Assembly: GCF_009931435.1 (NCBI RefSeq)
Contig: NZ_CP043414.1
Strand: one strand, 5' to 3'
Source: Escherichia coli
GTDB lineage: Bacteria > Pseudomonadota > Gammaproteobacteria > Enterobacterales > Enterobacteriaceae
DNA length: 64,000 bases
The notes beneath the pieces were generated by a model that saw only the letters and a program-made list of their open reading frames with translations, had not been told where the DNA came from and did no database searches. Below, one piece after another: positions 10 to 39,662 of the stretch (positions are counted from its first letter, which is position 1; every line of letters starts with the position of its first letter). A program made the translations under genes and the position numbers.

Positions 10-1309
10 TTACACTGGTGTGTTCAGCAAATCGTTAACGGCATCAGATGCCGGGTTACCTGCAGCCAGCGGTGCCGGTGCCCCCTGCATCAGACGATCC
101 AGCGCAGTGTCACTGCGCGCCTGTGCACTCTGTGGTGCAGCTGCCAGAATGCGGCGGGCCGTTTCCACGGTCATACCGGGGGTTTCGGCCAGCACGCGTG
201 CCTGTTCTTCGCGTCCGTGAGCCTCCTCACAGTTGAGGATCCCCATAATGCGACTGTTTTCTGCCGCAACCGCTGCGGTGATCTGCGCGTTCACGTCCGG
301 CTGCGCCGCGCTGGCGTTCTCGCCCTCCGTCGCTTGCACCACGCCAGTAACGTCAGCCTGCGAAGCAGTGGCTGAAACAGTTGTTGATTGAGTCTCTTTG
401 GTCATTCGCCCTCCTGAGAGACGGGATTTACGTGCATCCAGTGCATCACGCATGACGGTGATCGCATCGGTACTGTTAACAAGTTCATCAGCCAGTCCGG
501 CATCAATGGCCTCCTGACCGCTGTACACTGCAGCCTCGGTATCCAGCACAGCCTGCACGGACAGGCCGGTATATGCCGACACCTTCTGTGCAAACATCCG
601 GCGGGTTGCATCCATCCGGGACTGCAGTGTTTCCCGGACATCATCCGGTAGATGGCTGTAGGGGTTGCCATCCACCTTATGGCTGCCGCTGTAAATCAGC
701 GTGATTTCCACGCCCTGTTTCTCCAGCGCAGCACCGTAATTACTGTGAGCCATCATGACGCCGATGGAGCCTGTCCGGGCGGTCTGCGTGACCAGACGTC
801 GGGAGGCGGCGCTGGCAAGCAACTGACCTGCACTGCAGTTCATGTCGTTGGCCAGCGCCCATACCGGCTTTATGTCACGCACACGGGCGATGATGTCAGC
901 GCAGTCAAATGCCCCTGCCACCATCCCGCCTGGCGTATCCATATCGAGCAGAATGCCGTCCACCATCGGGTCGCTGGCAGCCTGTTGCAGACGGGCGATA
1001 ATGCCGTTGTAACCGGTCATCCCCGAATACGGCTGCAGCGCCCGTGTCCGGCTGACCAGCGTGCCGGAAACCGGCAGCACGGCGATGCCGTTCATGACCT
1101 GATAACTGCGGGCCTGTCGTGGTCCGTCATCATCAACGGATAACGCCAGCGCCGCGGGTGCCTCTCCGGCAGTCAGGCTGTCGCCGGATACCGCATCCGT
1201 CAGGCGGCTGATCCCAAGCTGGCCTGCAAGCGCACAAAAGAAAACCCGCGCATAGGCGGGTTCAAGCATCAGCGGCTCATTAAAGGCCATACTGGCAATA
1301 TGCGGGAGA

Positions 1310-1329
<20 letters not shown>
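10..1329 (-). CDS. C: Head maturation protease / minor capsid protein C (S49 ClpP-like), with in-frame scaffold Nu3 region
   Basis: Translation matches lambda gpC N-terminus (MTAELRNLPHIASMAFNEPL...) from a GTG start at 1329; the ORF-track ORF extends upstream to 1464. Confidence 0.85.
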
Positions 1330-5010
<3,681 letters not shown>

Positions 5011-5036
<26 letters not shown>

Positions 5037-12725: not shown

Positions 12726-12939
12726 GCTTCCCCTCCGCAGAGGTCAAACGCTAGATGCAAAGAATTGCAGGTGCATTTCTGCATCTGTGAAGGGAGAAGA
12801 GAGTTTGGATTGTATGTGCGCATAAACGTCCCCGTTTAGCGCAGAAGTCACCGGAGTTGTTCAGGCTCCGGTGACATAATTATGCCGTGTTGATTTCCCA
12901 AAATCAAAATCGATAGAATTGCTCCTTCTTAAAACACTT

Positions 12940-16289: not shown

Positions 16290-16543
16290 GGTGACACCTG
16301 CTAACGTATGCTTTTATAAACCTTAGTGGTGGGATATAATTTTTGTTTATTTTTTATTTAAAAAGACAATTAAGGTCACATTATCTTGAATATACAACAA
16401 TAATCGTATTGCAATTTTCTTACGCCATAATCTTGAAAGCACAAAAGAATACATAAAAAATAAAGACATTAACAAAAAGCATAAAACGAGGCTCATATAA
16501 ATATAAGAGCCTCCATATTTTAGTCGTTTAGAAACAAATTATT

Positions 16544-16876
16544 TTAATGTGGTGTGCTTCGTGACAATAAATTAATAATCAACACACCGGCACAAATCAA
16601 CATCATGCCTATAATGGCTGGCAGGTCCAGCCGTTGGCCGAAAAATCCCCATGACAGTAAGCTAATCAGGACAATACCGACTCCTGACCAGATAGCATAA
16701 GCAATCCCTGTAGGAATATAAGCCAGCGTCTGAGCTAATAACCAGAATGATGCACAATAACAAATAATTGTACCAACAGATGGCCATAACCGTGTAAAAC
16801 CTTCTGAAAACTTCATTAAGGTTGTACCAATGACCTCTGCAAGTATTGCACCACCAAGATAAATATAAGGGTTCAT
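16544..16876 (-). CDS. emrE: SMR-family multidrug efflux transporter EmrE
   Basis: 110 aa from MNPYIYLGGAILAEVIGTTLMKFSEGF, matches recalled EmrE. Confidence 0.95.
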   Translation of the reverse strand: MNPYIYLGGAILAEVIGTTLMKFSEGFTRLWPSVGTIICYCASFWLLAQTLAYIPTGIAYAIWSGVGIVLISLLSWGFFGQRLDLPAIIGMMLICAGVLIINLLSRSTPH

Positions 16877-16943
16877 AGCATATTCTTTCCTGTTCAAACT
16901 GGAGAGAATTGTACTACAGTTTGAACTCAACTCACCTGTTTCA

Positions 16944-17246
16944 TCATTGTGTTCCCATTGATGTTCTTTTATATACCCTCAATACCCGTTTCATCGCGGC
17001 ACTCTGGCGACACTCCTTAAAAATCAGATTCGTGCTCACCTTTCCTTCCCATTCTTCTCTGGTAGCGAACCGGTAATACACCGTTCGCCAGACCTTACCA
17101 TCAACGACCAGGATTCCTGCCCGCGCCATTTTAGCCGCAGCCTGATTTATGCTGGTTACGGTTGCGCCTGTTACCGCGGCAACGTCCTGTGCACAGAAGC
17201 TCTTATGCGTCCCCAGGTAATGAATAATTGCCTCTTTGCCCGTCAT
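16944..17246 (-). CDS. ren: Ren protein
   Basis: 100 aa, MTGKEAIIHYLGTH... matches lambda Ren. Confidence 0.85.
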   Translation of the reverse strand: MTGKEAIIHYLGTHKSFCAQDVAAVTGATVTSINQAAAKMARAGILVVDGKVWRTVYYRFATREEWEGKVSTNLIFKECRQSAAMKRVLRVYKRTSMGTQ

Positions 17247-17944
17247 ACACTTGCTCCTTTCAGTCCGAACTTAGCTTTAATTTCTGCGATCTTCGCCAGA
17301 GCCTGTGCACGATTTAGAGGTCTACCGCCCATAACAGGAAGTTGTTTTACTGGTTCAGGTATCGTCTCACCACGGTTAATTCGCGCTGTCATACAGGTCA
17401 GTTCATCGGCAGCCTTGCGCCGTAATTCCGCGTCAGCCAGCGCATTGGCCCGCATGTTCTGGTACAAGTTGGTAACCAACCAGTAATGCGCGTTCGATTT
17501 CCACGGATAAGACTCTGCATCCGGATACAGGCCACGCTTCCGGCAATACTCGTAAACCATATCAACCAGCTCGCTGACGTTTGGCAGCCCGGCGTTAACA
17601 GATGCTTCTTCCCGGCACCAGGCGACAAACTGCCCGGGTGATGGCAGGAATGGTCGATTCTGCCGACGGGCTACGCGCATTCCAGCGTTAACCTGTTCCA
17701 TTGTGGTGATCCCGTTTTCCCGGAAAGCCAGAACCCACTGGCGGCGGATTTCGTTCAGTTCATTCTGGTCACGGTTAGCCAGGCTAGCCGGGAAAGTTGC
17801 CAGTAACTGGCTGAACACACCGTTGATGATCTGCGCTACCTGCTGTACCTGCGGCTTTTCGTCGTACTGTTCCGGCATATTGTTGGCGATCCGGCGCATC
17901 TGCTCACGGTCAAAGTTAACCATCTGTGCGGCGATGTTTTTCAT
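17243..17944 (-). CDS. P: Replication protein P (DnaB helicase loader)
   Basis: 233 aa, lambda P-like. Confidence 0.9.
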   Translation of the reverse strand: MKNIAAQMVNFDREQMRRIANNMPEQYDEKPQVQQVAQIINGVFSQLLATFPASLANRDQNELNEIRRQWVLAFRENGITTMEQVNAGMRVARRQNRPFLPSPGQFVAWCREEASVNAGLPNVSELVDMVYEYCRKRGLYPDAESYPWKSNAHYWLVTNLYQNMRANALADAELRRKAADELTCMTARINRGETIPEPVKQLPVMGGRPLNRAQALAKIAEIKAKFGLKGASV

Positions 17945-18870
17945 AAATCCACCCCGTAAATCCAGTCAGTGTTCGTCAGGTCGAGTTTTGGTTTGCCGGC
18001 TGTCACGCCAGCCTGTTGCTTGTTTCGGTTGATTTCGAGCTGGGTCCACTTGTCGCGGAGTTTGGCCGGACTCAGCACGTTACCGGACCAGAAGTTGTCC
18101 TGGCATGCCCAGCGGAACAGCACGCACATGTCGCGGTGGTTACGTCCGTCACGTTCACGCATCAGGCGGATATCGTTAGCCCACCCTGCAAAATTCGGTT
18201 TTCTGGCTGATGGCGCGATGGTCTTCACCATGTCAAACATCCACTCTGCGGCGGTCAGGTCTTCTGCTGTCCCCCACTTGCTGCCACTCTGAATTGCAGC
18301 ATCCGGTTTCACCACAGGAAGGTCGTTTTCTGGCTGGTCAGAGGATTCGCCAGAATTCTCGGACGAAAAAGGTTTTATATTGTCTTTTGTTAGTTTGTCT
18401 TTTGTGTTTACCTGATTCGGGTAAACGCCTTTACCTGATTTGGGTAAACTTTTCTTACCTGATTCAGGTAAATTTACCTCTTTCAGGTAAACTTTATTTT
18501 TCTTACCTGATTCGGGTAATGTTGACCATTCACTGACCACATTATTAATGCCGATATTTCGCCCGCTCTGAATAAGAATCCCACGCTTTACCAGAACGCT
18601 TTTTGCAGCAGAACACTTGTGCGGCAATATCCCGGTCAATTCGGAAAGTTGCTCGTTGCTCACCCAATCCAGTCTTTTATTAAAGCCATATGTTTTGCGC
18701 ATGACAGCCAGGAAGACCAGAAGCTGGTGCTGTGTTAATCCGGCCAGCATCACAGCTTCCAGCAACTCATTTGCAATGCGCGTATAACCATCATCGAGAT
18801 CTGCCACGCGCGGCTCCTTTTGTGCCGCATCCGGCACTGGAAAATTGAATATCTCAGCAGTGTTTGCCAT
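17941..18870 (-). CDS. O: Replication initiator O (contains ori iterons)
   Basis: Lambda O-like N-terminus; start MANTAEIFNF preceded by GGGAGG SD (track ORF starts earlier at 18960); iterons inside the gene. Confidence 0.85.
   Translation of the reverse strand: MANTAEIFNFPVPDAAQKEPRVADLDDGYTRIANELLEAVMLAGLTQHQLLVFLAVMRKTYGFNKRLDWVSNEQLSELTGILPHKCSAAKSVLVKRGILIQSGRNIGINNVVSEWSTLPESGKKNKVYLKEVNLPESGKKSLPKSGKGVYPNQVNTKDKLTKDNIKPFSSENSGESSDQPENDLPVVKPDAAIQSGSKWGTAEDLTAAEWMFDMVKTIAPSARKPNFAGWANDIRLMRERDGRNHRDMCVLFRWACQDNFWSGNVLSPAKLRDKWTQLEINRNKQQAGVTAGKPKLDLTNTDWIYGVDL
18372..18520. repeat. Origin of replication: five 18-bp iterons (ttacctgattcgggtaaa and variants) plus adjacent AT-rich tract, inside O
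   Basis: Iterons at about 18408-18425, 18431-18448, 18455-18472, 18474-18491, 18503-18520; AT-rich 18372-18406. Confidence 0.85.
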
Positions 18871-18956
18871 AATTCCTCCCGCAATGAGTGTGTTACGATT
18901 TGCACCTGAAAGTCGGTTCTGTTCCCGCAGACCGACTTTCGCCATTTCTGAACCTA

Positions 18957-19496
18957 TCATATTGCCCCCAGCATGGTGGTCACCATCGCCATTAATGGAC
19001 CAGCCAGATCCGGGTCCACACGAAACATCGACACAATACCTTCACTCATTTCCTTCAGTTTCTGGTGGCGTGGTGCGTTGAGAATGACAGCCTGTTTTGC
19101 CTCACTGAGTTCCTTTTCCATTTCAGCCAACCGAGTCATGAAGCTATCCTGCTCAACCAGGTAACCGCGATATTCCAGCGGTAGTACCGCCAGAATTGCC
19201 GGGGTCAGTTCACGCACGTTATTTCGGTATTTTTCAGAATCGAATTTGTTATCGAGGAAGCGGAACAGCTTCTGGCGTGCACGGCTGACATCATCAGGGA
19301 AATCGATGGTGCCGTCGCCCTGCTCCCGATACTCATTCACAATGAGTGCGGCAACGACATCCTGATTATCTACAGCCGACCAGGCGCGGACGGCATCACG
19401 GATTTTTTCGTGGCCTGGAGCTTGTTTTGTTTGAGAACGATTTATCACCGCAGTCGGAATAAATCCGCTAGTCTGTTGGTATGTAAGTGGTTGCAT
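18957..19496 (-). CDS. Early regulatory protein in the cII position (YdaT-like)
   Basis: 179 aa ORF between the cro-like gene and O. Confidence 0.6.
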   Translation of the reverse strand: MQPLTYQQTSGFIPTAVINRSQTKQAPGHEKIRDAVRAWSAVDNQDVVAALIVNEYREQGDGTIDFPDDVSRARQKLFRFLDNKFDSEKYRNNVRELTPAILAVLPLEYRGYLVEQDSFMTRLAEMEKELSEAKQAVILNAPRHQKLKEMSEGIVSMFRVDPDLAGPLMAMVTTMLGAI

Positions 19497-19565
19497 AATT
19501 GACTCCTTTAGTTTGAATTGACTGTTAAGTTGATTGCTTATTGTTAAAGAGCGTGAAATGGAAAT

Positions 19566-19796
19566 TTAAGCTGCGTTCTTTTCGGTGTGTGGAAACAACT
19601 TCGGAAGATCCGGGCGAATCTGGTATGCCTTCACAACTCCACCAGTAGCCGTAACAATGCTGCCGACATGTTCAGGGGATACCTTTGCTTTGTTGTGAAG
19701 CCACTTATAGACGGCCTGCTGTGAAACTTCGCAGGCATCGCCTAGTTTCTTTTGTGAACCAACGATATTGATCGCTGTTTTGATTGCTGGGTTCAT
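19566..19796 (-). CDS. cro: Cro-like HTH regulator (YdaS/Cro family)
   Basis: 76 aa, divergent from the cI gene across the operator region. Confidence 0.7.
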   Translation of the reverse strand: MNPAIKTAINIVGSQKKLGDACEVSQQAVYKWLHNKAKVSPEHVGSIVTATGGVVKAYQIRPDLPKLFPHTEKNAA

Positions 19797-19900
19797 AACA
19801 ACCTCCGTGGTTAATCCGAATCAAGATTAAAACTATGGTTGTTTTTAGTCAACAACCATTTTCGTTTGATGAAATAAAACCTTGGTTGTACATTTGATCT
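19797..19900. promoter_or_regulatory. Immunity-region divergent promoter/operator (OR-like); 9-bp-arm palindrome atggttgtt-N7-aacaaccat at 19835-19859
   Basis: Palindrome and repeated ACAACC/GGTTGT half-sites between divergent cro-like and cI genes. Confidence 0.6.
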
Positions 19901-20590
19901 ATGAAAACAACACTCTCAGAAAGACTTAAAGAAGCCAGATTAGCGCGAGGCCTTACACAAAAGGCGCTTGGGGATTTGGTCGGGGTTAGCCAGGCTGCTA
20001 TTCAGAAAATCGAAACAGGGAAAGCTAACCAAACAACTAAAATCGTGGAGATCGCGAACGCTTTGGGTGTACGCGCAGAATGGTTATCTTCTGGCGTTGG
20101 AAATATGTCAGACAGTACAGTGCAACCAATACAATCAACTGTCAGCCATTCCAAATACTTCAAAATTGACGTTCTTGATATAGAAGTCAGTGCCGGGCCA
20201 GGTGTAATCAACCGTGAGTTTGTAGAAGTTCTACGCTCGGTTGAGTACTCGTTTGACGATGCTCGTCACATGTTCGATGGCAGGAAGGCGGAAAATATCC
20301 GCATCATTAACGTGCGAGGTGACAGCATGTCAGGGACGATCGAACCAGGTGACCTGCTGTTCGTTGATATCACTGTTAAATCTTTCGACGGTGATGGCAT
20401 CTATGCGTTTCTGTACGACGACACTGCCCATGTAAAACGTCTTCAAATGATGAAGGATAAGCTGCTGGTTATCTCTGATAACAAGAGCTACTCGCCGTGG
20501 GACCCGATCGAGAAAGACGAGATGAACCGGGTGTTCATATTCGGTAAGGTCATTGGAAGCATGCCGCAGACGTACAGGAAGCATGGTTAA
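19901..20590 (+). CDS. cI: CI-type prophage repressor (XRE HTH plus S24 LexA-like autopeptidase domain)
   Basis: 229 aa; N-terminal HTH; C-terminal GDSMSGTIEPGDLLFVD peptidase motif. Confidence 0.85.
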   Translation: MKTTLSERLKEARLARGLTQKALGDLVGVSQAAIQKIETGKANQTTKIVEIANALGVRAEWLSSGVGNMSDSTVQPIQSTVSHSKYFKIDVLDIEVSAGPGVINREFVEVLRSVEYSFDDARHMFDGRKAENIRIINVRGDSMSGTIEPGDLLFVDITVKSFDGDGIYAFLYDDTAHVKRLQMMKDKLLVISDNKSYSPWDPIEKDEMNRVFIFGKVIGSMPQTYRKHG

Positions 20591-20819
20591 TTTATCTACG
20601 ACTTAAGGGAGCGAAGGTTAAGGTTTATACCACTCGGATTAGATATTGCACTAAATTCTCTATAAGAACGCCAAATCTGTTTGCATATTTCAGTAAATAT
20701 TCTCGTTGTTAGCTGAGATTTGTTGCTACTGTCAGCAAAATGTCTCCCTATCTCGTAGCGGTTTTTATTTCGAATCATTATGTTAAGATGTTTCTGATTA
20801 TAATGAATGGAAACATAAA

Positions 20820-21200
20820 ATGAGAAAAATCCTAATCGCTGCCATGATGGCATCTGTATTGGCTGGGTGTGCTTCTTCAGGCAACCAGCAACTCAAAAAT
20901 GAAACTGAAATTAGTGTCCAGTCTAAACTTCAGGAAGGTAAAACAACCAAGAATGAGGTTAAATCTTACTTTGGTTCTCCTGATGCTGTTTCATATACTG
21001 ACAGTGGAAAGGAGATCTGGAAGTACGCCTTTGCAAAAGTAAAAGTTAATGGCACCACTTTTATTCCATTCTATGGATTATTCCATAACGGAACGAACGG
21101 TACGAAAAAAGAACTTACTATTCTTTTTAACGATGACACGATTAAGAAATACACAATGTCAGAAACCCAAATAAACTCGAAATCAGGTTGGGCTGACTGA
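20820..21200 (+). CDS. Lipoprotein of unknown function encoded downstream of cI (rexAB position)
   Basis: 126 aa; signal peptide with lipobox LAGC; followed by a terminator. Confidence 0.75.
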   Translation: MRKILIAAMMASVLAGCASSGNQQLKNETEISVQSKLQEGKTTKNEVKSYFGSPDAVSYTDSGKEIWKYAFAKVKVNGTTFIPFYGLFHNGTNGTKKELTILFNDDTIKKYTMSETQINSKSGWAD

Positions 21201-21207
21201 TAATCAT

Positions 21208-21236
21208 ACCCGGCAACCGCGCCGGGTTTTCTTTTC
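21208..21236 (+). terminator. Rho-independent terminator after the cI-lipoprotein unit
   Basis: acccggc / gccgggt stem followed by tttcttttcc. Confidence 0.7.
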
Positions 21237-21350
21237 CTCCCCCTCATAACTCATACCGTCCAAAAAACCACCACACCTCACTTCAGTTATCGCTATGCGA
21301 TGCAAGTCACAAAATAAATCCATCCTAAATACAACCAGTTATATTTAAAA

Positions 21351-21404
21351 CAACCGATAAAACAACTTTTGTTGTTGACGATAAAACAACTATAGTTTTA
21401 AATA
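21351..21404 (+). promoter_or_regulatory. Candidate early-left promoter/operator (pL/OL-like): palindrome aacaac-tttt-gttgtt overlapping a TTGACG -35 element
   Basis: Palindrome 21361-21376; TTGACG at 21375-21380; AT-rich -10 candidates about 17 bp downstream; shares the ACAAC half-site with the OR region. Confidence 0.45.
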
Positions 21405-21596
21405 AATTCATCGCAACGACACAACGATACGGTAACCACCTGTTTCACCGTTGCGATGACCGCTTAGATCCGCAGTTTGAATTTCAGCAGGCTTCGGGGA
21501 GTGCGAGGGGTGAAACGGACGCGTGAACGTCGGTGTGACCAGCTGAAATCAACACAACACTTTATACCTCAGTCGCTTCAACGAGGCGGCTTAGTT

Positions 21597-21887
21597 ATGA
21601 CAACCGGCGGCCATCCACCGCCTGAATACGCGCAGAAGTCTCTATATGTTCAGCAGCCCAGCTTACGGGCAGGAGTTTTTATGGTTCATCAACATTACGG
21701 AACGCAGACCGTTAATCGAGGTGCGGTCATGCCAGGAATGCTGGTCAAACACAAAGATGGTACCTGGACTGCATCAGCTAATTTACGCGGACGGCTTTAT
21801 CTGCATCGCGGCATCGAGCGCACTTATACCCGTGATTTGCTCGTGGAAGTTTTTCTCGACGGACGCGGTAACGGCCTGAATCGCTAA
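21597..21887 (+). CDS. Hypothetical early-left protein (96 aa from ATG with GAGG SD; possible 136-aa form from TTG at 21477)
   Basis: ORF between the pL-like region and gam; the longer form has an arginine-rich N-terminus. Confidence 0.4.
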
Positions 21888-21962
21888 TCCCCTTTCCTGT
21901 TTTCCTAATCAGCCTGGCATTTCGCGGGCGATATTTTCACAGCCATTTTCAGGAGTTCAGCC

Positions 21963-22259
21963 ATGAACGCTTATTACATTCAGGATCGTCTTGAGGCTCA
22001 GAGCTGGGCGCGTTACTACCAGCAGATCGCCCGTGAAGAGAAAGAGGCAGAACTGGCAGACGACATGGAAAAAGGCCTGCCCCAGCACCTGTTTGAATCG
22101 CTATGCATCGATCATTTGCAACGCCACGGGGCCAGCAAAAAAGCCATTACCCGTGCGTTTGATGACGATGTTGAGTTTCAGGAGCGCATGGCAGAACACA
22201 TCCGGTACATGGTTGAAACCATTGCTCACCACCAGGTTGATATTGATTCAGAGGTATAA
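21963..22259 (+). CDS. gam: Gam (RecBCD inhibitor), short GamS-length form
   Basis: 98 aa matches the C-terminal 98 residues of lambda Gam; AGGAG SD; in-frame stop upstream at 21906. Confidence 0.9.
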
Positions 22260-22264
22260 AACGG

Positions 22265-23050
22265 ATGAGTACAGCACTCGCAACGCTGGCAGGGAAGCTG
22301 GCTGAACGTGTCGGCATGGATTCTGTCGACCCACAGGAACTGATCACCACTCTTCGCCAGACGGCATTTAAAGGTGATGCCAGCGATGCGCAGTTCATCG
22401 CATTGCTGATCGTCGCCAACCAGTACGGCCTTAATCCGTGGACGAAAGAAATTTACGCCTTCCCTGATAAGCAGAACGGCATCGTTCCGGTGGTGGGCGT
22501 TGATGGCTGGTCCCGCATCATCAATGAAAACCAGCAGTTTGATGGCATGGACTTTGAGCAGGACAACGAATCCTGTACATGCCGGATTTACCGCAAGGAC
22601 CGTAATCATCCGATCTGCGTTACCGAATGGATGGATGAATGCCGCCGCGAACCATTCAAAACCCGCGAAGGCAGAGAAATCACGGGGCCGTGGCAGTCGC
22701 ATCCCAAACGGATGTTACGGCATAAAGCCATGATTCAGTGTGCCCGTCTGGCCTTCGGATTTGCTGGTATCTATGACAAGGATGAAGCCGAGCGCATTGT
22801 CGAAAATACTGCATACACTGCAGAACGTCAGCCAGAACGCGACATCACTCCGGTTAACGATGAAACCATGCAGGAGATTAACACTCTGCTGATCGCCCTG
22901 GATAAAACATGGGATGACGACTTATTGCCGCTCTGTTCCCAGATATTTCGCCGCGACATTCGCGCATCGTCAGAACTGACACAGGCCGAAGCAGTGAAAG
23001 CTCTTGGATTCCTGAAACAGAAAGCCACTGAGCAGAAGGTGGCAGCATGA
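22265..23050 (+). CDS. bet: Bet (Red-beta single-strand annealing protein)
   Basis: 261 aa, matches lambda Bet. Confidence 0.95.
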
Positions 23051-23727
23051 TACCGGACATTATCCTGCAGCGTACCGGGATCGACGTGAGAGCTGTCGAA
23101 CAGGGGGATGATGCATGGCACAAATTACGGCTCGGCGTCATCACCGCTTCAGAAGTTCACAACGTGATAGCAAAGCCCCGCTCAGGAAAGAAGTGGCCTG
23201 ACATGAAAATGTCCTACTTCCACACCCTGCTGGCTGAGGTTTGCACCGGTGTGGCTCCGGAAGTTAATGCTAAGGCGCTGGCCTGGGGAAAACAGTACGA
23301 GAACGACGCCAGAACCCTGTTTGAATTCACTTCCGGCGTGAATATTACTGAATCCCCGATCATCTATCGCGACGAAAGTATGCGCACCGCCTGCTCTCCC
23401 GATGGTTTATGCAGTGACGGCAACGGCCTTGAACTGAAATGCCCGTTTACCTCCCGGGATTTCATGAAATTCCGGCTCGGTGGTTTCGAGGCAATAAAAT
23501 CGGCTTACATGGCCCAGGTGCAGTACAGCATGTGGGTGACGCGAAAAGATGCCTGGTACTTTGCCAACTATGACCCGCGCATGAAGCGTGAAGGCCTGCA
23601 TTATGTCGTGATTGAGCGGAATGAAAAGTACATGGCGAGTTTTGACGAGATGGTGCCGGAGTTCATCGAAAAAATGGACGAGGCACTGGCTGAAATTGGT
23701 TTTGTATTTGGGGAGCAATGGCGATGA
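23047..23727 (+). CDS. exo: Exo (lambda exonuclease)
   Basis: 226 aa, near-identical to lambda Exo; full length. Confidence 0.95.
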
Positions 23728-23906
23728 CGCATCCTCACGATAATATCCGGGTAGGCGCGATCACTTTCGTCTACTCCGTTACAAAGCGAGGCTGGGTATT
23801 TCCCGGCCTTTCTGTTATCAGAAATCCACTGAAAGCACAGCGGCTGGCTGAGAAGATAAATAATAAACGGGAGGCGGTATGCACAAAGCATCTCCTGTTG
23901 AGTTAA
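23718..23906 (+). CDS. Lambda orf60a-like small protein
   Basis: 62 aa, matches recalled lambda orf60a. Confidence 0.6.
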
Positions 23907-24070
23907 GAACGAGTATTGAGATGGCACATAGCCTTGCTCAAATTGGAGTCAGGTTTGTGCCAATACCAGTAGAAACAGACGAAGAATTTCATACGTTAGC
24001 CACATCCCTTTCACAAAAGCTGGAAATGATGGTGGCGAAAGCAGAAGCAGATGAGAGAGACCAGGTATGA
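23879..24070 (+). CDS. Lambda orf63-like small protein
   Basis: 63 aa, matches recalled lambda orf63. Confidence 0.6.
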   Translation: MHKASPVELRTSIEMAHSLAQIGVRFVPIPVETDEEFHTLATSLSQKLEMMVAKAEADERDQV

Positions 24071-24150
24071 CAACCACTGAATGCATTTTTCTGGCAGCGG
24101 GCTTCATATTCTGTGTGCTTATGCTTGCCGACATGGGGCTTGTTCAATGA
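24067..24150 (+). CDS. Candidate 27-aa hydrophobic peptide (MTTTECIFLAAGFIFCVLMLADMGLVQ), translationally coupled to neighbours
   Basis: ATGA overlaps at both ends (24067 and 24147); not in the ORF track. Confidence 0.35.
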   Translation: MTTTECIFLAAGFIFCVLMLADMGLVQ

Positions 24151-24362
24151 CACCTCAGCAAGAAAACGCCCTTCGCAGCATTGCCCGTCAGGCTAATTCT
24201 GAAATCAAAAAAGCCAGACAGCATTTTCCGGATAAAAACGTCGATGACATTTGCCGTAGCGTACTAAAGAAGCACCGCGAAACGGTAACGCTGATGGGAT
24301 TCACACCGACTCATTTAAGCCTGGCGATCGGCATGTTGAACGGCGTCTTTAAGGAACGGTGA
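24147..24362 (+). CDS. Hypothetical small prophage protein
   Basis: 72 aa from MTPQQENALRSIARQ; the track ORF starts earlier at 24081. Confidence 0.5.
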   Translation: MTPQQENALRSIARQANSEIKKARQHFPDKNVDDICRSVLKKHRETVTLMGFTPTHLSLAIGMLNGVFKER

Positions 24363-24460
24363 ACATGAAAAGCAAAATCATCAGGGAGCTACAGGCTCCT
24401 TTTTTATTATTCGCATTTACCCTCAAGCGTATTAACCAACAATTCAGGGATTAATGAAAG

Positions 24461-24679
24461 ATGGCAGACATCATTGATTCAGCATCAGAAATCGAAGAAT
24501 TACAGCGCAATACAGCAATAAAAATGCGTCGTCTGAACTACCAGACTGTATCCGCAACTCATTGTTGTGAGTGTGGCGATCCGATAGATGAGCGAAGACG
24601 CCTGGCTGTTCAGGGTTGTCGGACTTGTGCGAGTTGCCAGGAGGAGATCGAACTTAAGAACAAACAATGGGGACTGTGA
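24461..24679 (+). CDS. TraR/DksA-family C4 zinc-finger protein
   Basis: 72 aa with CxxC-N17-CxxC (CCECGDP ... CRTCASC). Confidence 0.7.
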   Translation: MADIIDSASEIEELQRNTAIKMRRLNYQTVSATHCCECGDPIDERRRLAVQGCRTCASCQEEIELKNKQWGL

Positions 24680-24726
24680 TGGCCTCAAAGCAGCAAATTT
24701 CAACATCGTCCAACTGAGGTGTAAAA

Positions 24727-25005
24727 ATGTTCAGAATCATTTTTCCTAACACCTGGTACGTCGACCACCACGGCACTCCCTGCAAAATCCTGCGTTCTAC
24801 CCACAACAAAGTTCACTACATCCGAAAAGGCAGAACATGTATCGCCAGCATGTTCCGCTTTAATCATGACTTTGAACCTGTGAATAAAGCTGATGCAGAT
24901 CGGATAGCAGAAGAGATCGAAACGGCAGAACACATTAAGAAGTTACGTGACATGCGTTCAAAAAGCAGAGGTAACCATGGAATCATACAGCCTCACACTC
25001 GATGA
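24727..25005 (+). CDS. Hypothetical prophage protein
   Basis: 92 aa ORF upstream of xis. Confidence 0.4.
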   Translation: MFRIIFPNTWYVDHHGTPCKILRSTHNKVHYIRKGRTCIASMFRFNHDFEPVNKADADRIAEEIETAEHIKKLRDMRSKSRGNHGIIQPHTR

Positions 25006-25348
25006 GGCCTGTCAGTTTCTTAAGATATCCAGACCAACCGCCACCAACTGGATACGAACAGGCCGCCTACAGGCAACACGTAAAGATCCAACCAAGCCAA
25101 AATCTCCTTACCTCACAACACGGCAAGCCTGCATTGCGGCGCTTCAGTCTCCGCTGCATACTGTCCAGGTGAGCGCGGGTGATGGCATAACAGAGGAAAG
25201 AAAATGTCACTCTTCCGCAGAAATGAAATATGGTATGCCTCGTATTCGCTCCCGGGCGGGAAACGAATTAAGGAATCTCTTGGCACAAAGGACAAGCGGC
25301 AAGCTCAGGAGTTGCACGACAAGCGAAAAGCAGAACTCTGGCGAGTAG
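24977..25348 (+). CDS. xis: Putative excisionase; 3' end uncertain, ORF overlaps the int start
   Basis: ORF directly upstream of int with HTH-like N-terminus ([26 protein letters not shown]); possibly a pseudogene as in K-12 xisD. Confidence 0.45.
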
Positions 25349-26367
25349 AAAAGCTAGGGGATTTACCTGATGTCACTTTTGAAGAGGCCTGCCTAAGATG
25401 GCTTGAGGAAAAAGCTGATAAAAAATCTCTCGATTCAGATAAAAGCCGGATTGAGTTCTGGCTTGAACATTTTGAGGGTATAAGGCTTAAAGATATCTCG
25501 GAGGCAAAGATTTACTCTGCTGTAAGCAGAATGCATAACAGAAAGACGAAAGAAATATGGAAACAGAAAGTTCAGGCCGCCATCAGGAAAGGTAAAGAAC
25601 TGCCTGTTTATGAACCAAAGCCAGTATCAACTCAGACAAAGGCAAAGCATCTTGCCATGATAAAGGCCATTCTCCGTGCTGCAGAACGCGACTGGAAGTG
25701 GCTGGAAAAAGCGCCTGTCATCAAGATACCAGCGGTCAGAAACAAGCGAGTCAGATGGCTGGAAAAGGAGGAAGCAAAACGCCTTATTGATGAGTGCCCC
25801 GAACCACTGAAATCTGTCGTCAAGTTTGCGCTGGCAACTGGTCTGAGAAAGTCGAACATCATAAATCTGGAATGGCAACAAATCGACATGCAGCGACGAG
25901 TTGCCTGGGTGAATCCAGAAGAGAGCAAATCAAACCGCGCCATTGGTGTGGCGCTGAACGATACCGCCTGTAAAGTGTTGCGTGATCAAATAGGCAAGCA
26001 TCACAAATGGGTGTTTGTACATACCAAGGCGGCTAAGCGAGCAGATGGAACATCAACGCCTGCGGTCAGGAAGATGCGCATCGACAGCAAGACATCATGG
26101 CTATCAGCTTGTCGTCGTGCAGGAATTGAAGATTTCCGTTTCCATGACCTCAGACACACCTGGGCAAGCTGGCTGATTCAGTCAGGCGTCCCATTATCAG
26201 TGCTTCAGGAAATGGGCGGATGGGAGTCCATAGAAATGGTTCGTAGGTATGCTCACCTTGCGCCTAATCATTTGACAGAGCATGCGAGGAAAATAGACGA
26301 CATTTTTGGTGATAATGTCCCAAATATGTCCCACTCTGAAATTATGGAGGATATAAAGAAGGCGTAA
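25204..26367 (+). CDS. intD: Tyrosine integrase (DLP12 IntD-type)
   Basis: 387 aa; C-terminal R...HxxR...Y catalytic region; adjacent to tRNA-Arg. Confidence 0.95.
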
Positions 26368-26382
26368 CTGATTGAATTGTAA

Positions 26383-26459
26383 TGGCGCGCCCTGCAGGAT
26401 TCGAACCTGCGGCCCACGACTTAGAAGGTCGTTGCTCTATCCAACTGAGCTAAGGGCGC
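26383..26459 (-). tRNA. argU: tRNA-Arg (anticodon UCU), argU; phage attachment site at its 3' end
   Basis: 77-nt reverse complement gives acceptor stem GCGCCCU/AGGGCGC, anticodon loop CUUCUAA, T-arm GGTTCGAATCC, 3' CCA. Confidence 0.95.
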
Positions 26460-26701
26460 GTTGATACCGCAATGCGGTGTAATCGCGTGAATTATACGGT
26501 CAACCCTTGCTGAGTCAATGGCTTTTGATCTGGTTGCTGAACAAGTGAACGACCGCGTCTGATTTTCTGATTTATTTCGCTATAGCGGCAAACAAACGTA
26601 CACCGCTGCGCGTCTGAATCAAGAAAACCCGTATTTTCATGTATCAAAGTACAATTTCCCGCCCTAACGGAAAATTGTCCGATCCTATGAGACTGATAAC
26701 T

Positions 26702-38598: not shown

Positions 38599-39662
38599 AA
38601 CAGGTTTGCGTCCTCGGTAACGGGCAGTTAGGCCGTATGTTGCGCCAGGCAGGCGAACCGTTAGGCATTGCTGTCTGGCCGGTCGGGCTGGACGCTGAAC
38701 CGGCGGCGGTGCCCTTTCAACAAAGCGTGATTACCGCTGAGATCGAACGCTGGCCGGAAACCGCATTAACGCGCGAGTTGGCACGCCATCCAGCCTTTGT
38801 GAACCGCGATGTGTTCCCAATTATTGCCGACCGTCTGACTCAGAAGCAGCTTTTCGACAAGCTTCACCTGCCGACTGCACCGTGGCAGTTACTTGCCGAT
38901 CGCAGTGAGTGGCCTGCGGTGTTTGATCGTTTAGGTGAACTGGCGATTGTTAAGCGTCGTACTGGTGGCTATGACGGTCGCGGTCAATGGCGTTTACGCG
39001 CCGATGAAACCGCACAGTTACCGACTGAATGCTACGGCGAATGTATTGTCGAGCAGGGCATTAACTTCTCTGGCGAAGTATCGCTGGTTGGCGCGCGCGG
39101 CTTTGATGGCAGCACTGTGTTTTATCCGCTGACGCATAACCTGCATCAGGACGGTATTTTGCGCACCAGCGTCGCTTTCCCGCAGGCCAACGCACAGCAG
39201 CAGGCGCAGGCCGAAGAGATGCTGTCGGCGATTATGCAGGATCTGGGCTATGTGGGCGTGATGGCGATGGAGTGTTTTATCACTCCGCAAGGTCTGCTGA
39301 TCAACGAACTGGCTCCGCGTGTGCATAACAGTGGTCACTGGACACAAAACGGTGCCAGCATCAGCCAGTTTGAGCTGCATCTGCGGGCGATTACCGATCT
39401 GCCGTTACCGCAACCGGTGGTAAATAGCCCGTCAGTGATGATCAACCTGATTGGTAGCGATGTGAACTATGACTGGCTGAAACTGCCGCTGGTGCATCTG
39501 CACTGGTACGACAAAGAAGTGCGTCCGGGCCGTAAGGTGGGGCATCTGAATTTGACCGACAGCGACACATCGCGTCTGACCGCAACGCTGGAAGCCTTAA
39601 TCCCGCTGCTGCCGCCAGAGTATGCCAGCGGCGTGATGTGGGCGCAGAATAAGTTCAGTTAA
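38595..39662 (+). CDS. purK: N5-carboxyaminoimidazole ribonucleotide synthase
   Basis: 355 aa ATP-grasp protein, overlaps purE stop. Confidence 0.95.

Follow-up and report, generated by a model that had tools for sequence, protein, structure and literature searches.

Within a 64,000-nt stretch of Escherichia coli DNA (NCBI RefSeq assembly GCF_009931435.1, contig NZ_CP043414.1; this whole stretch is called the window, and all coordinates refer to it), positions 18957–20590 encode three proteins that raise a question of identity: does a gene pair whose Pfam families carry toxin names belong to the lysis/lysogeny switch of a temperate phage, or is it a toxin–antitoxin module or a relic? An earlier reading made from the letters of the DNA (the sequence-only reading) had placed a YdaS/YdaT-like pair in the cro and cII positions of an immunity region otherwise equipped with a lambda-type CI repressor and lambda O and P, and had implied that this pairing is odd. 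The three open reading frames (ORFs) of the block were all recovered, encoding proteins of 179 residues (18957–19496, minus strand), 76 residues (19566–19796, minus strand), and 229 residues (19901–20590, plus strand). We are highly confident that the region is the intact one that governs lysis or lysogeny and starts replication in a lambdoid prophage at the DLP12 site, argU, with the regulatory layout of phages phi80 and HK639. The recombination genes, P, and ren of this prophage are nearly those of lambda, and we are equally confident that YdaS and YdaT serve here as transcription factors. The arrangement is ordinary, widespread, and already annotated, and there is nothing unusual in the pairing.

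The CI repressor, its operators, and its promoters

The 229-residue protein encoded by cI (19901–20590, plus strand), divergent from cro, contains Pfam domains HTH_3 (E 5e-13) and Peptidase_S24 (E 1e-18). The description of this protein as a lambda-type CI with an S24 domain holds for its architecture; in sequence it is only 23% identical to lambda CI (E 0.025), and the closest solved relative of its N-terminal domain is the repressor of phage 434 (E 2e-9). Identity to HK639 CI is 44%. The residues needed for cleavage and catalysis are intact and correspond to those of lambda CI and LexA, namely Ala98-Gly99, Ser142 (in GDSM), and Lys179 (in VKRL). With a helix-turn-helix (HTH) domain, an S24 domain, an Ala-Gly site, and a Ser/Lys pair, CI has the features of the LexA/CI family of self-cleaving repressors, and RecA-stimulated cleavage is predicted from them. 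Such cleavage at Ala98-Gly99 would induce the prophage.

Three putative 14-bp operators of the form ACAACC-N4-TTTT/TCGT, spaced 23–24 bp from centre to centre, make up the right operator region (OR, 19829–19889) between cI and cro: OR1 (ACAACCATAGTTTT, 19829–19842), OR2 (ACAACCATTTTCGT, 19852–19865), and OR3 (ACAACCAAGGTTTT, 19876–19889). Three further operators form the left operator region (OL) at 21386–21399, 21362–21375, and 21331–21344. Across all 64 kb of the window, ACAAC half-sites reach a density of five or more per 110 bp at OR and OL only. The operators found here are 14 bp long and start with ACAA, as do those of phage 434, whose repressor also has the DNA-binding domain nearest to that of CI among solved structures. 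The recognition helices differ, the 434 stretch TQQSIEQ being replaced by SQAAIQK in CI, and the inner operator bases differ from those of 434 as well. Two of the three base-contacting glutamines of the 434 recognition helix are altered. For these reasons an immunity other than that of 434 is expected.

Candidate promoters read from the sequence fit these operators. PR (19824–19852, minus strand) consists of TTGACT, a 17-nt spacer, and TAATCT, with OR1 inside the spacer and OR2 abutting the −35 hexamer, and PRM (19866–19894, plus strand) consists of TTGATG, 17 nt, and TACATT, with OR3 inside the spacer. PL (region 21331–21403, plus strand) is formed by TTGACG (21375–21380), 17 nt, and TTAAAT (21398–21403), and as in PR an operator occupies the spacer. 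Phages of different immunity share the PL leader from exactly the predicted +1 position, about 21410, which supports the assignment of PL. The cI ATG (19901) is not preceded by a Shine-Dalgarno sequence and the predicted PRM start lies at or beside it, so the cI message from PRM is likely leaderless, by analogy with lambda and CP-933P (PMC8630535). In the lysogen, CI with its 434-like DNA-binding domain would bind the three OR and three OL operators, so that PR and PL would be shut while CI would still be made from PRM.

The YdaS-family Cro and the YdaT-family CII

The naming of the 76-residue product of cro (19566–19796, minus strand) as YdaS-like was borne out, since it matches Pfam YdaS_toxin (PF15943) at 61.5 bits (E 7e-17) against a threshold of 30. 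It falls into PHROG 35, "transcriptional repressor," and its match in the Protein Data Bank (PDB) is a Cro entry, 3bd1 (E 5e-3); the P22_Cro profile remained below threshold (23 versus 30.2). It shares 63% of its residues with HK639 Cro and 30% with Rac YdaS. As a small HTH protein encoded by the first gene of the PR operon, it is a member of the YdaS/Cro family. This Cro, the first PR product, would compete with CI for the same operators.

The 179-residue protein (cII, 18957–19496, minus strand) is likewise of the family proposed for it: Pfam YdaT_toxin (PF06254) covers residues 67–154 with 104.5 bits (E 4e-30; threshold 21). PHROG 163, "CII-like transcriptional activator," covers residues 17–179 with E 1e-66. 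Along its whole length the protein shows 66% identity to phi80 cII (180 residues, E 1e-90) and is on that account an ortholog of that long-annotated protein; identity is also 66% to mEp237 CII, 52% to HK639 cII, and 34% over 96 residues to Rac YdaT, and the solved CP-933P YdaT (8bt1) is matched in PDB sequence searches with E 5.5e-4. Whether the protein is homologous to a canonical CII, a point that the sequence-only reading had named as decisive, has a divided answer: it is a homologue of phi80 cII, but no similarity to lambda CII could be detected (BLASTP E 2.4; Pfam gives YdaT_toxin alone).

An AlphaFold model of the 179-residue monomer was made with 27 homologs and has a mean predicted local distance difference test score (pLDDT) of 78.6. 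When this model was searched against the PDB with Foldseek, the top five matches were all YdaT chains (3c4r and 8bt1; probability 1.0, template modeling (TM) score 0.67–0.69, 117–123 aligned residues), and the next match had a TM score of 0.24. The predicted fold is of the YdaT type, all-helical, with a POU-like HTH domain followed by a long helix, which the monomer model places at residues 119–138 and which would serve oligomerisation. The gene has a strong Shine-Dalgarno sequence, AAGGAG, ahead of its ATG, and its position is that usual for the YdaT family: a cro-like gene immediately precedes it, the replication genes lie downstream, and the repressor gene points the other way.

YdaT of Rac and of CP-933P binds TTGATT-N6-AATCAA (the YdaT box), which in Rac spans the ydaT start codon according to the YdaS/YdaT literature, and in both prophages YdaT switches on a reverse promoter from which the repressor is expressed (PMC5917428, PMC8630535, PMC9986795, PMC11879457). 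The stretch of the 179-residue protein aligned to the CP-933P recognition helix reads QKLFRFLD, compared with QKIFRWLD in CP-933P. Modelled on these relatives, CII, the second PR product and probably a tetramer, would after infection tip the balance towards lysogeny through a reverse promoter that directs repressor synthesis.

The best match to the YdaT box near cII lies within the gene, in codons 17–22 (GTGATA-AATCGT-TCTCAA, 19431–19448). At the same offset, +48, the best or joint-best match was found in all nine phi80-type cII genes compared, with 2–4 mismatches, and with two in mEp237 and a Klebsiella phage. Synonymous-codon identity in cII is highest in codons 1–15 (0.73, versus 0.38–0.60 in the other 15-codon blocks), which encode a segment predicted to be disordered. 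These data are suggestive, and we treat 19431–19448 as a hypothetical CII site; constraints of translation initiation could also explain the codon conservation. Two other candidates were rejected. For a PRE/CII site over the cII ATG of the window, the 6-N6-6 repeat is missing in phi80 and mEp237, and a candidate −10 hexamer CATAAT (19494–19499) is not conserved in phi80.

The replication module and the cII–O gap

The replication initiator O is listed as a 339-residue ORF (17941–18960, minus strand; Pfam Phage_rep_O), and its likely start is Met31 at 18870, giving 17941–18870. Residue 1 of lambda O aligns with residue 31 of the listed ORF, and when the phi80, HK639, and mEp237 loci are aligned with the window, the ATG at 18870 does not vary; GGAGG precedes it at 6 nt. 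RefSeq and phage records, in which O is annotated with an overlap into cII, thus probably make the gene 30 codons too long. With the start at 18870 an 86-bp gap opens between cII and O, and the long annotation hides in it a unit resembling the oop and M3 antisense RNAs (18845–18956, plus strand). A promoter scan gave TTGAAT, 17 nt, and (TG)CATAAT at 18845–18873; a hairpin follows at 18908–18940 (−24.6 kcal/mol, z −3.8), and the gap aligns with the annotated phi80 M3 RNA and the HK639 M3-like RNA. A small oop/M3-like antisense RNA would thus sit between cII and O. An Rfam scan of 16500–26500 (E up to 1) returned the argU tRNA only, everything else falling far under the gathering scores, which leaves both the oop-like RNA and the PL leader outside any known RNA family.

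The replication origin (18403–18519) consists of five repeats of about 18 bp (TTACCTGATTCGGGTAA) within O, beside a T-rich tract. O is 67% identical to lambda O overall, and the part that matches is C-terminal. Lambda DNA homology begins at window 18407, corresponding to lambda 39119, and the fourth origin repeat of lambda ends at 39118. As the lambda joint follows directly after the origin repeats, O is a hybrid of an origin-binding half of its own and a lambda P-binding half. Since homology stops at the array, the lambda iterons are separately annotated, and the repeat unit TTACCTGATTCGGGTAA is distinct, the origin repeats are not those of lambda. The origin specificity of lambda, which would call for lambda repeats and the N-terminal domain of lambda O, is accordingly absent, whereas the Pfam O and P families and the five repeats inside O identify a lambda-type O/P replication module. 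The proposal of lambda O and P stood for P and the C-terminal part of O and had to be amended for the rest of O and for the origin.

The helicase loader P (17243–17944, minus strand) is 97.4% identical to lambda P (Pfam Phage_lambda_P, E 2e-61), and ren (16944–17246, minus strand; PHROG 142) encodes a protein 89% identical to lambda Ren. The PHROGs labels for the three products are "replication initiation O-like," "P-like helicase loader," and "Ren-like." O would bind its own origin repeats and recruit P via its lambda-type C-terminal domain.

Module boundaries and mosaicism

Comparison of the module boundaries with lambda, which the sequence-only reading had suggested alongside a comparison with Rac, placed the joints at 18407 and 21881. 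To one side, window 16971–18407 corresponds to lambda 40555–39119 at 93.8% identity (ren, P, and the C-terminal part of O); to the other, 21881–24656 corresponds to lambda 33193–30418 at 97.1% (gam, bet, exo, and three small ORFs). Between these blocks lie 3.5 kb (18407–21881) that are not lambda DNA and replace a 5.9-kb lambda segment running from kil to the O N terminus. With Rac, only the 30–34% protein similarity of the YdaS and YdaT families was found.

A second set of boundaries was provided by phage 4A7 (genus Bievrevirus), which has the gene order emrE-ren-P-O-cII as in the window and carries a different cro and a different CI DNA-binding domain; its immunity presumably differs from that of the prophage in the window. 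The two are 97% identical from 16458 to 19497, where identity ends exactly at the cII ATG, and resume at 20034–20589 (the CI C-terminal domain, 87%). From this comparison, the exchangeable immunity cassette comprises 19498–20033, that is the cro–cII gap, cro, OR, and the CI DNA-binding domain up to the CI hinge. Such a swap is the classic pattern of immunity cassettes. Because this recombination joint coincides with the start codon of cII, cro and cII do not travel together as a matched pair, a point against their being a cognate toxin–antitoxin system.

The same cII family also occurs beside repressors of 127–155 residues, which from their length are too short for an S24 domain, and beside DnaB- or DnaC-type replication modules (mEp237, CobraSix, and a Klebsiella phage). 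On these comparisons, phi80-type cII is a freely reassorting module. The cII gene is itself mosaic from about residue 113 (window 18957–19160), with two C-terminal alleles, …VDPDL… and …LMPEQ…, joined to different N-terminal DNA-binding halves across phages.

Comparison with known phages and prophages

The implied oddity of the pairing did not survive comparison with phi80 and HK639, which have the same domain layout. In phi80, CI has HTH and S24 domains, gene 30 is a YdaS-type Cro (29.8 bits), cII is of the YdaT type, and the M3 RNA is an annotated oop homolog; next come gene 15 (Phage_rep_O), which encloses origin repeats, and gene 14 (Phage_lambda_P), so that order and domain content are identical. 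A nin promoter with a palindromic box and a hairpin is shared as well. The differences from phi80 lie in sequence and in antitermination. CI is 24% identical to its phi80 counterpart and Cro has no BLAST match there at E ≤0.01, so that the two differ in immunity specificity. O and P are 41 and 49% identical, respectively, because O and P of the prophage in the window are of lambda type. Finally, the N gene and the nut sites of phi80 are both absent from the prophage in the window.

HK639 provides the closest named relatives of CI (44%, both proteins being 229 residues long, with HTH and S24 domains) and of Cro (63%), and shares a YdaT-type cII (52%), an M3-like RNA, and the lack of N. It differs in having an annotated put-like antiterminator RNA after pL and in a partly different replication module.

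With the racR-ydaS-ydaT region of Rac and the paaR2-ydaS-ydaT region of CP-933P, the locus shares Pfam families, gene order, and the fold of the CII analogue. Protein identity is only 30–34%, however, and CII of the window is longer by about 27 residues at its N terminus and about 40 at its C terminus. The S24 domain is lacking in PaaR2 (PMC8630535) and, judged from its 158-residue sequence, in RacR, and the Rac replication genes ydaU and ydaV have no BLAST match to O or P of the window. CP-933P YdaT has been described as homologous to phi80 CII, its gene preceding an o gene (PMC8630535). Lambda itself shares the logic of the circuit, gene order, tripartite OR and OL, an oop-type RNA, and the exo-bet-gam arm (97%); its Cro and CII are unrelated in sequence, and its N, cIII, rexAB, and sieB have no counterparts in the prophage of the window.

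The DLP12 locus and the prevalence of the block

The prophage occupies the DLP12 locus at the tRNA-Arg gene argU, with intD at 25204–26367 and emrE and ybcK on the left, and its flanks are 99.8–100% identical to those of K-12. Two segments of the window are missing from DLP12 of K-12 MG1655: 17554–23448, which holds the immunity region, O, part of P, and kil-gam-bet, and 23753–25109. The K-12 prophage has insertion sequence (IS) IS3 in ren and IS5 in nmpC, neither of which is present in the window. Since K-12 lost these segments and carries these insertions, the window represents a less decayed DLP12 and shows the state of the K-12 prophage before the immunity region was lost.

The 1634-bp block was detected in 2227 of 5426 complete E. 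coli genomes, and in 1503 of the 2227 no less than 80% of it is present. The phage record PhiR26_1 (stated host, K-12 MG1655) contains it with 99.9% identity, and there the genes are labelled cI, cro, and cII; other phage records, 95–97% identical to the block, are annotated with cI, Cro, cII, and O. The RefSeq label "toxin YdaT domain-containing protein," derived from Pfam names, is misleading in this lineage, where working temperate phages have the two proteins as their Cro and CII. Beyond this correction the finding as such matters little, being the correct reading of a common and already annotated module.

At the left end of the window, minus-strand ORFs of 641, 533, and 484 residues lie within 10–5036. 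The first two correspond in length to lambda terminase A and portal B, and the prophage may on that account be complete, with late genes.

Toxin–antitoxin module, remnant, or working switch

The view that the 76- and 179-residue proteins form a toxin–antitoxin or toxin–repressor module within the prophage owes its currency to the Pfam names YdaS_toxin and YdaT_toxin, to two papers from 2017 describing Rac YdaS/YdaT toxicity upon RacR depletion, and to the filamentation and death that follow Rac YdaT induction (PMC11879457). The names stem from a 2007 prediction that was left unconfirmed by experiments in 2010 and was later disputed and tested against (PMC5917428, PMC8630535), and YdaS and YdaT have been reassigned from "toxin–antitoxin" to Cro/CII analogues (PMC5917428, PMC8630535, PMC9986795, PMC11879457). 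Toxicity upon overexpression does not discriminate between the two, being reported for Rac YdaT and also for overproduced lambda CII but not for CP-933P YdaT (PMC8630535). The YdaT fold, a DNA-binding domain with an oligomerisation helix, also counts against a toxin–antitoxin module, and PADLOC gave no match for the 76-residue, 179-residue, or neighbouring lipoprotein genes. The joint at the cII ATG seen with phage 4A7 separates cro from cII, in other phages the neighbours of the same cII are a different cro and a different repressor gene, and these comparisons do not point to a cognate pair inherited as a unit, as a type II toxin–antitoxin system would be. We regard a toxin–antitoxin role as scarcely credible. 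A somewhat better case, though still quite an improbable one, can be made for a decayed, non-functional remnant like DLP12 of K-12: the locus is the same, K-12 lost exactly this region (17554–23448), and some strains with an identical block have IS insertions and pseudogenes nearby. Against decay stand the intact ORFs of the window with their good ribosome-binding sites, the complete set of operators and promoters, the retained catalytic residues of CI, the 99.9% identity of the block in PhiR26_1, and the ORFs of 641 and 533 residues at the left end.

Several observations also weigh against a working switch of the phi80/HK639 layout. The ~27-residue disordered N terminus and the two C-terminal helices (~40 residues) of CII go beyond the solved YdaT structures. 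The candidate CII site at 19431–19448 departs from the YdaT box at 4 of 12 positions, and when inverted repeats around the cII start were enumerated across eight phages, none was kept in all. No homolog of N or of cIII was found between PL and kil, and with these two missing, the control of CII stability and antitermination cannot be transferred from lambda. Lastly, the prophage extends past the left edge of the window, which bears on its inducibility. With these points counted, an intact control region with YdaS and YdaT as Cro and CII is still the reading that we favour, at the confidence given at the outset.

A YdaT box in the nin-Q promoter

A by-product of the analysis, and the one item that may be new, is a perfect YdaT box in a promoter of the nin-Q region (12847–12907, minus strand). 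The only zero-mismatch box in the window, it lies at 12890–12907, 6.6 kb from cII, within a near-consensus promoter to which it contributes the −35 hexamer and some of the 17-nt spacer; the promoter reads TTGATT (−35), TTGGGA, AATCAA, CACGG, and CATAAT (−10, 12884–12879). A hairpin with an invariant loop follows at 12875–12847, and then ylcH-ybcN-ninE-ybcO-rusA-ylcG-quuD. Among seven phages the half-sites and the −10 hexamer are invariant, the 6-bp spacer is hardly ever the same, and the upstream flanks are unrelated; in phi80 the nin box is TTGATA-N6-TATCAA, a compensatory T/A swap that preserves its symmetry. Of 74 loci from IMG/VR, ascertained by the hairpin alone, 34 have a perfect box and 30 a box with one mismatch, with 41 distinct spacers.

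The element goes together with YdaT-type cII. A YdaT-type cII is present in each of the 21 complete phage records with the element; in the background, 46 records have a YdaT-type cII and 348 a lambda-type one. In viral loci with the element, cII was of YdaT type in 52 of the 61 that could be assessed, of lambda type in five, and undetectable in four; a further 101 loci were not assessable, and relatedness among phages inflates the association. A 1996 record of phage 82 already carries annotations for both promoter hexamers and for the hairpin ("possible regulator-binding site"), and in the searchable literature neither a link of the nin-Q box to YdaT/CII nor a YdaT box in DLP12 or nin was found. 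The K-12 DLP12, which is without its own cII, retains the exact box sequence (NC_000913, 572284–572312).

We put forward only tentatively, as a possibility somewhat less likely to be right than wrong, that phi80-type CII may have a second, high-affinity, and previously undescribed target at this promoter (12879–12907), through which it would act directly on transcription towards Q, the activator of the late genes. The lambda counterpart of such a role is the CII-activated antisense promoter paQ. If true, the box in K-12 DLP12 would be a candidate target of cross-talk from Rac YdaT, and the nin-Q box would reveal the means by which CII proteins of this class hold back lytic development.

Another version, which we consider rather unlikely, is that phi80-type CII mainly represses rightward late-gene transcription via the nin-Q box, rather than, or besides, activating a PRE-like cI promoter. 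In its favour are the sole perfect box covering the −35 and spacer of a promoter upstream of ylcH-ybcN-nin-Q, invariant half-sites around a variable spacer, the co-occurrence with YdaT-type cII in the 21 records and 52 loci, a putative recognition helix (QKLFRFLD) near that of CP-933P YdaT, a binder of this box, and the weak match near cII. Against it, the five loci with lambda-type cII and the four without detectable cII carry the element too. Kinship among the phages swells the association, and Rac and CP-933P YdaT have been shown to activate at their own loci.

Antitermination, the PL arm, and the gene after cI

On the PR transcript, in the cro–cII gap, a boxA-like element (CGCTCTTTAACAA, 19541–19553, minus strand) was found, after which no boxB-like hairpin could be detected. 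The exact 12-mer GCTCTTTAACAA in this gap, which resembles the rrn/nut boxA consensus, occurs once in the window.

The PL transcript (21410–21887, plus strand) begins with a leader of about 270 nt containing a 52-nt hairpin (21408–21459), followed by kil (21681–21887). A put-like antiterminator was sought in the leader by pairwise alignment and folding against HK639, and the shared elements were CAGCAG and GCGAGGGG only, with no convincing homology; the HK022 record has no put annotation and was hence of no use for this comparison. An N-like ORF at 21477–21887 with an arginine-rich N terminus was rejected: it has a TTG start and no ribosome-binding site, and only its residues 60–135 match Kil. 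The kil gene has its own strong ribosome-binding site at 21681, and lambda homology (gam, bet, exo) resumes at 21881.

After cI, where lambda has rexAB, lies a gene for a 126-residue lipoprotein (20820–21227, plus strand; PHROG 3135, function unknown) with a terminator at 21208–21227. NCBIfam lipoprotein models remained below their cut-offs for this protein, which has a weak match to BamE (E 2e-4).

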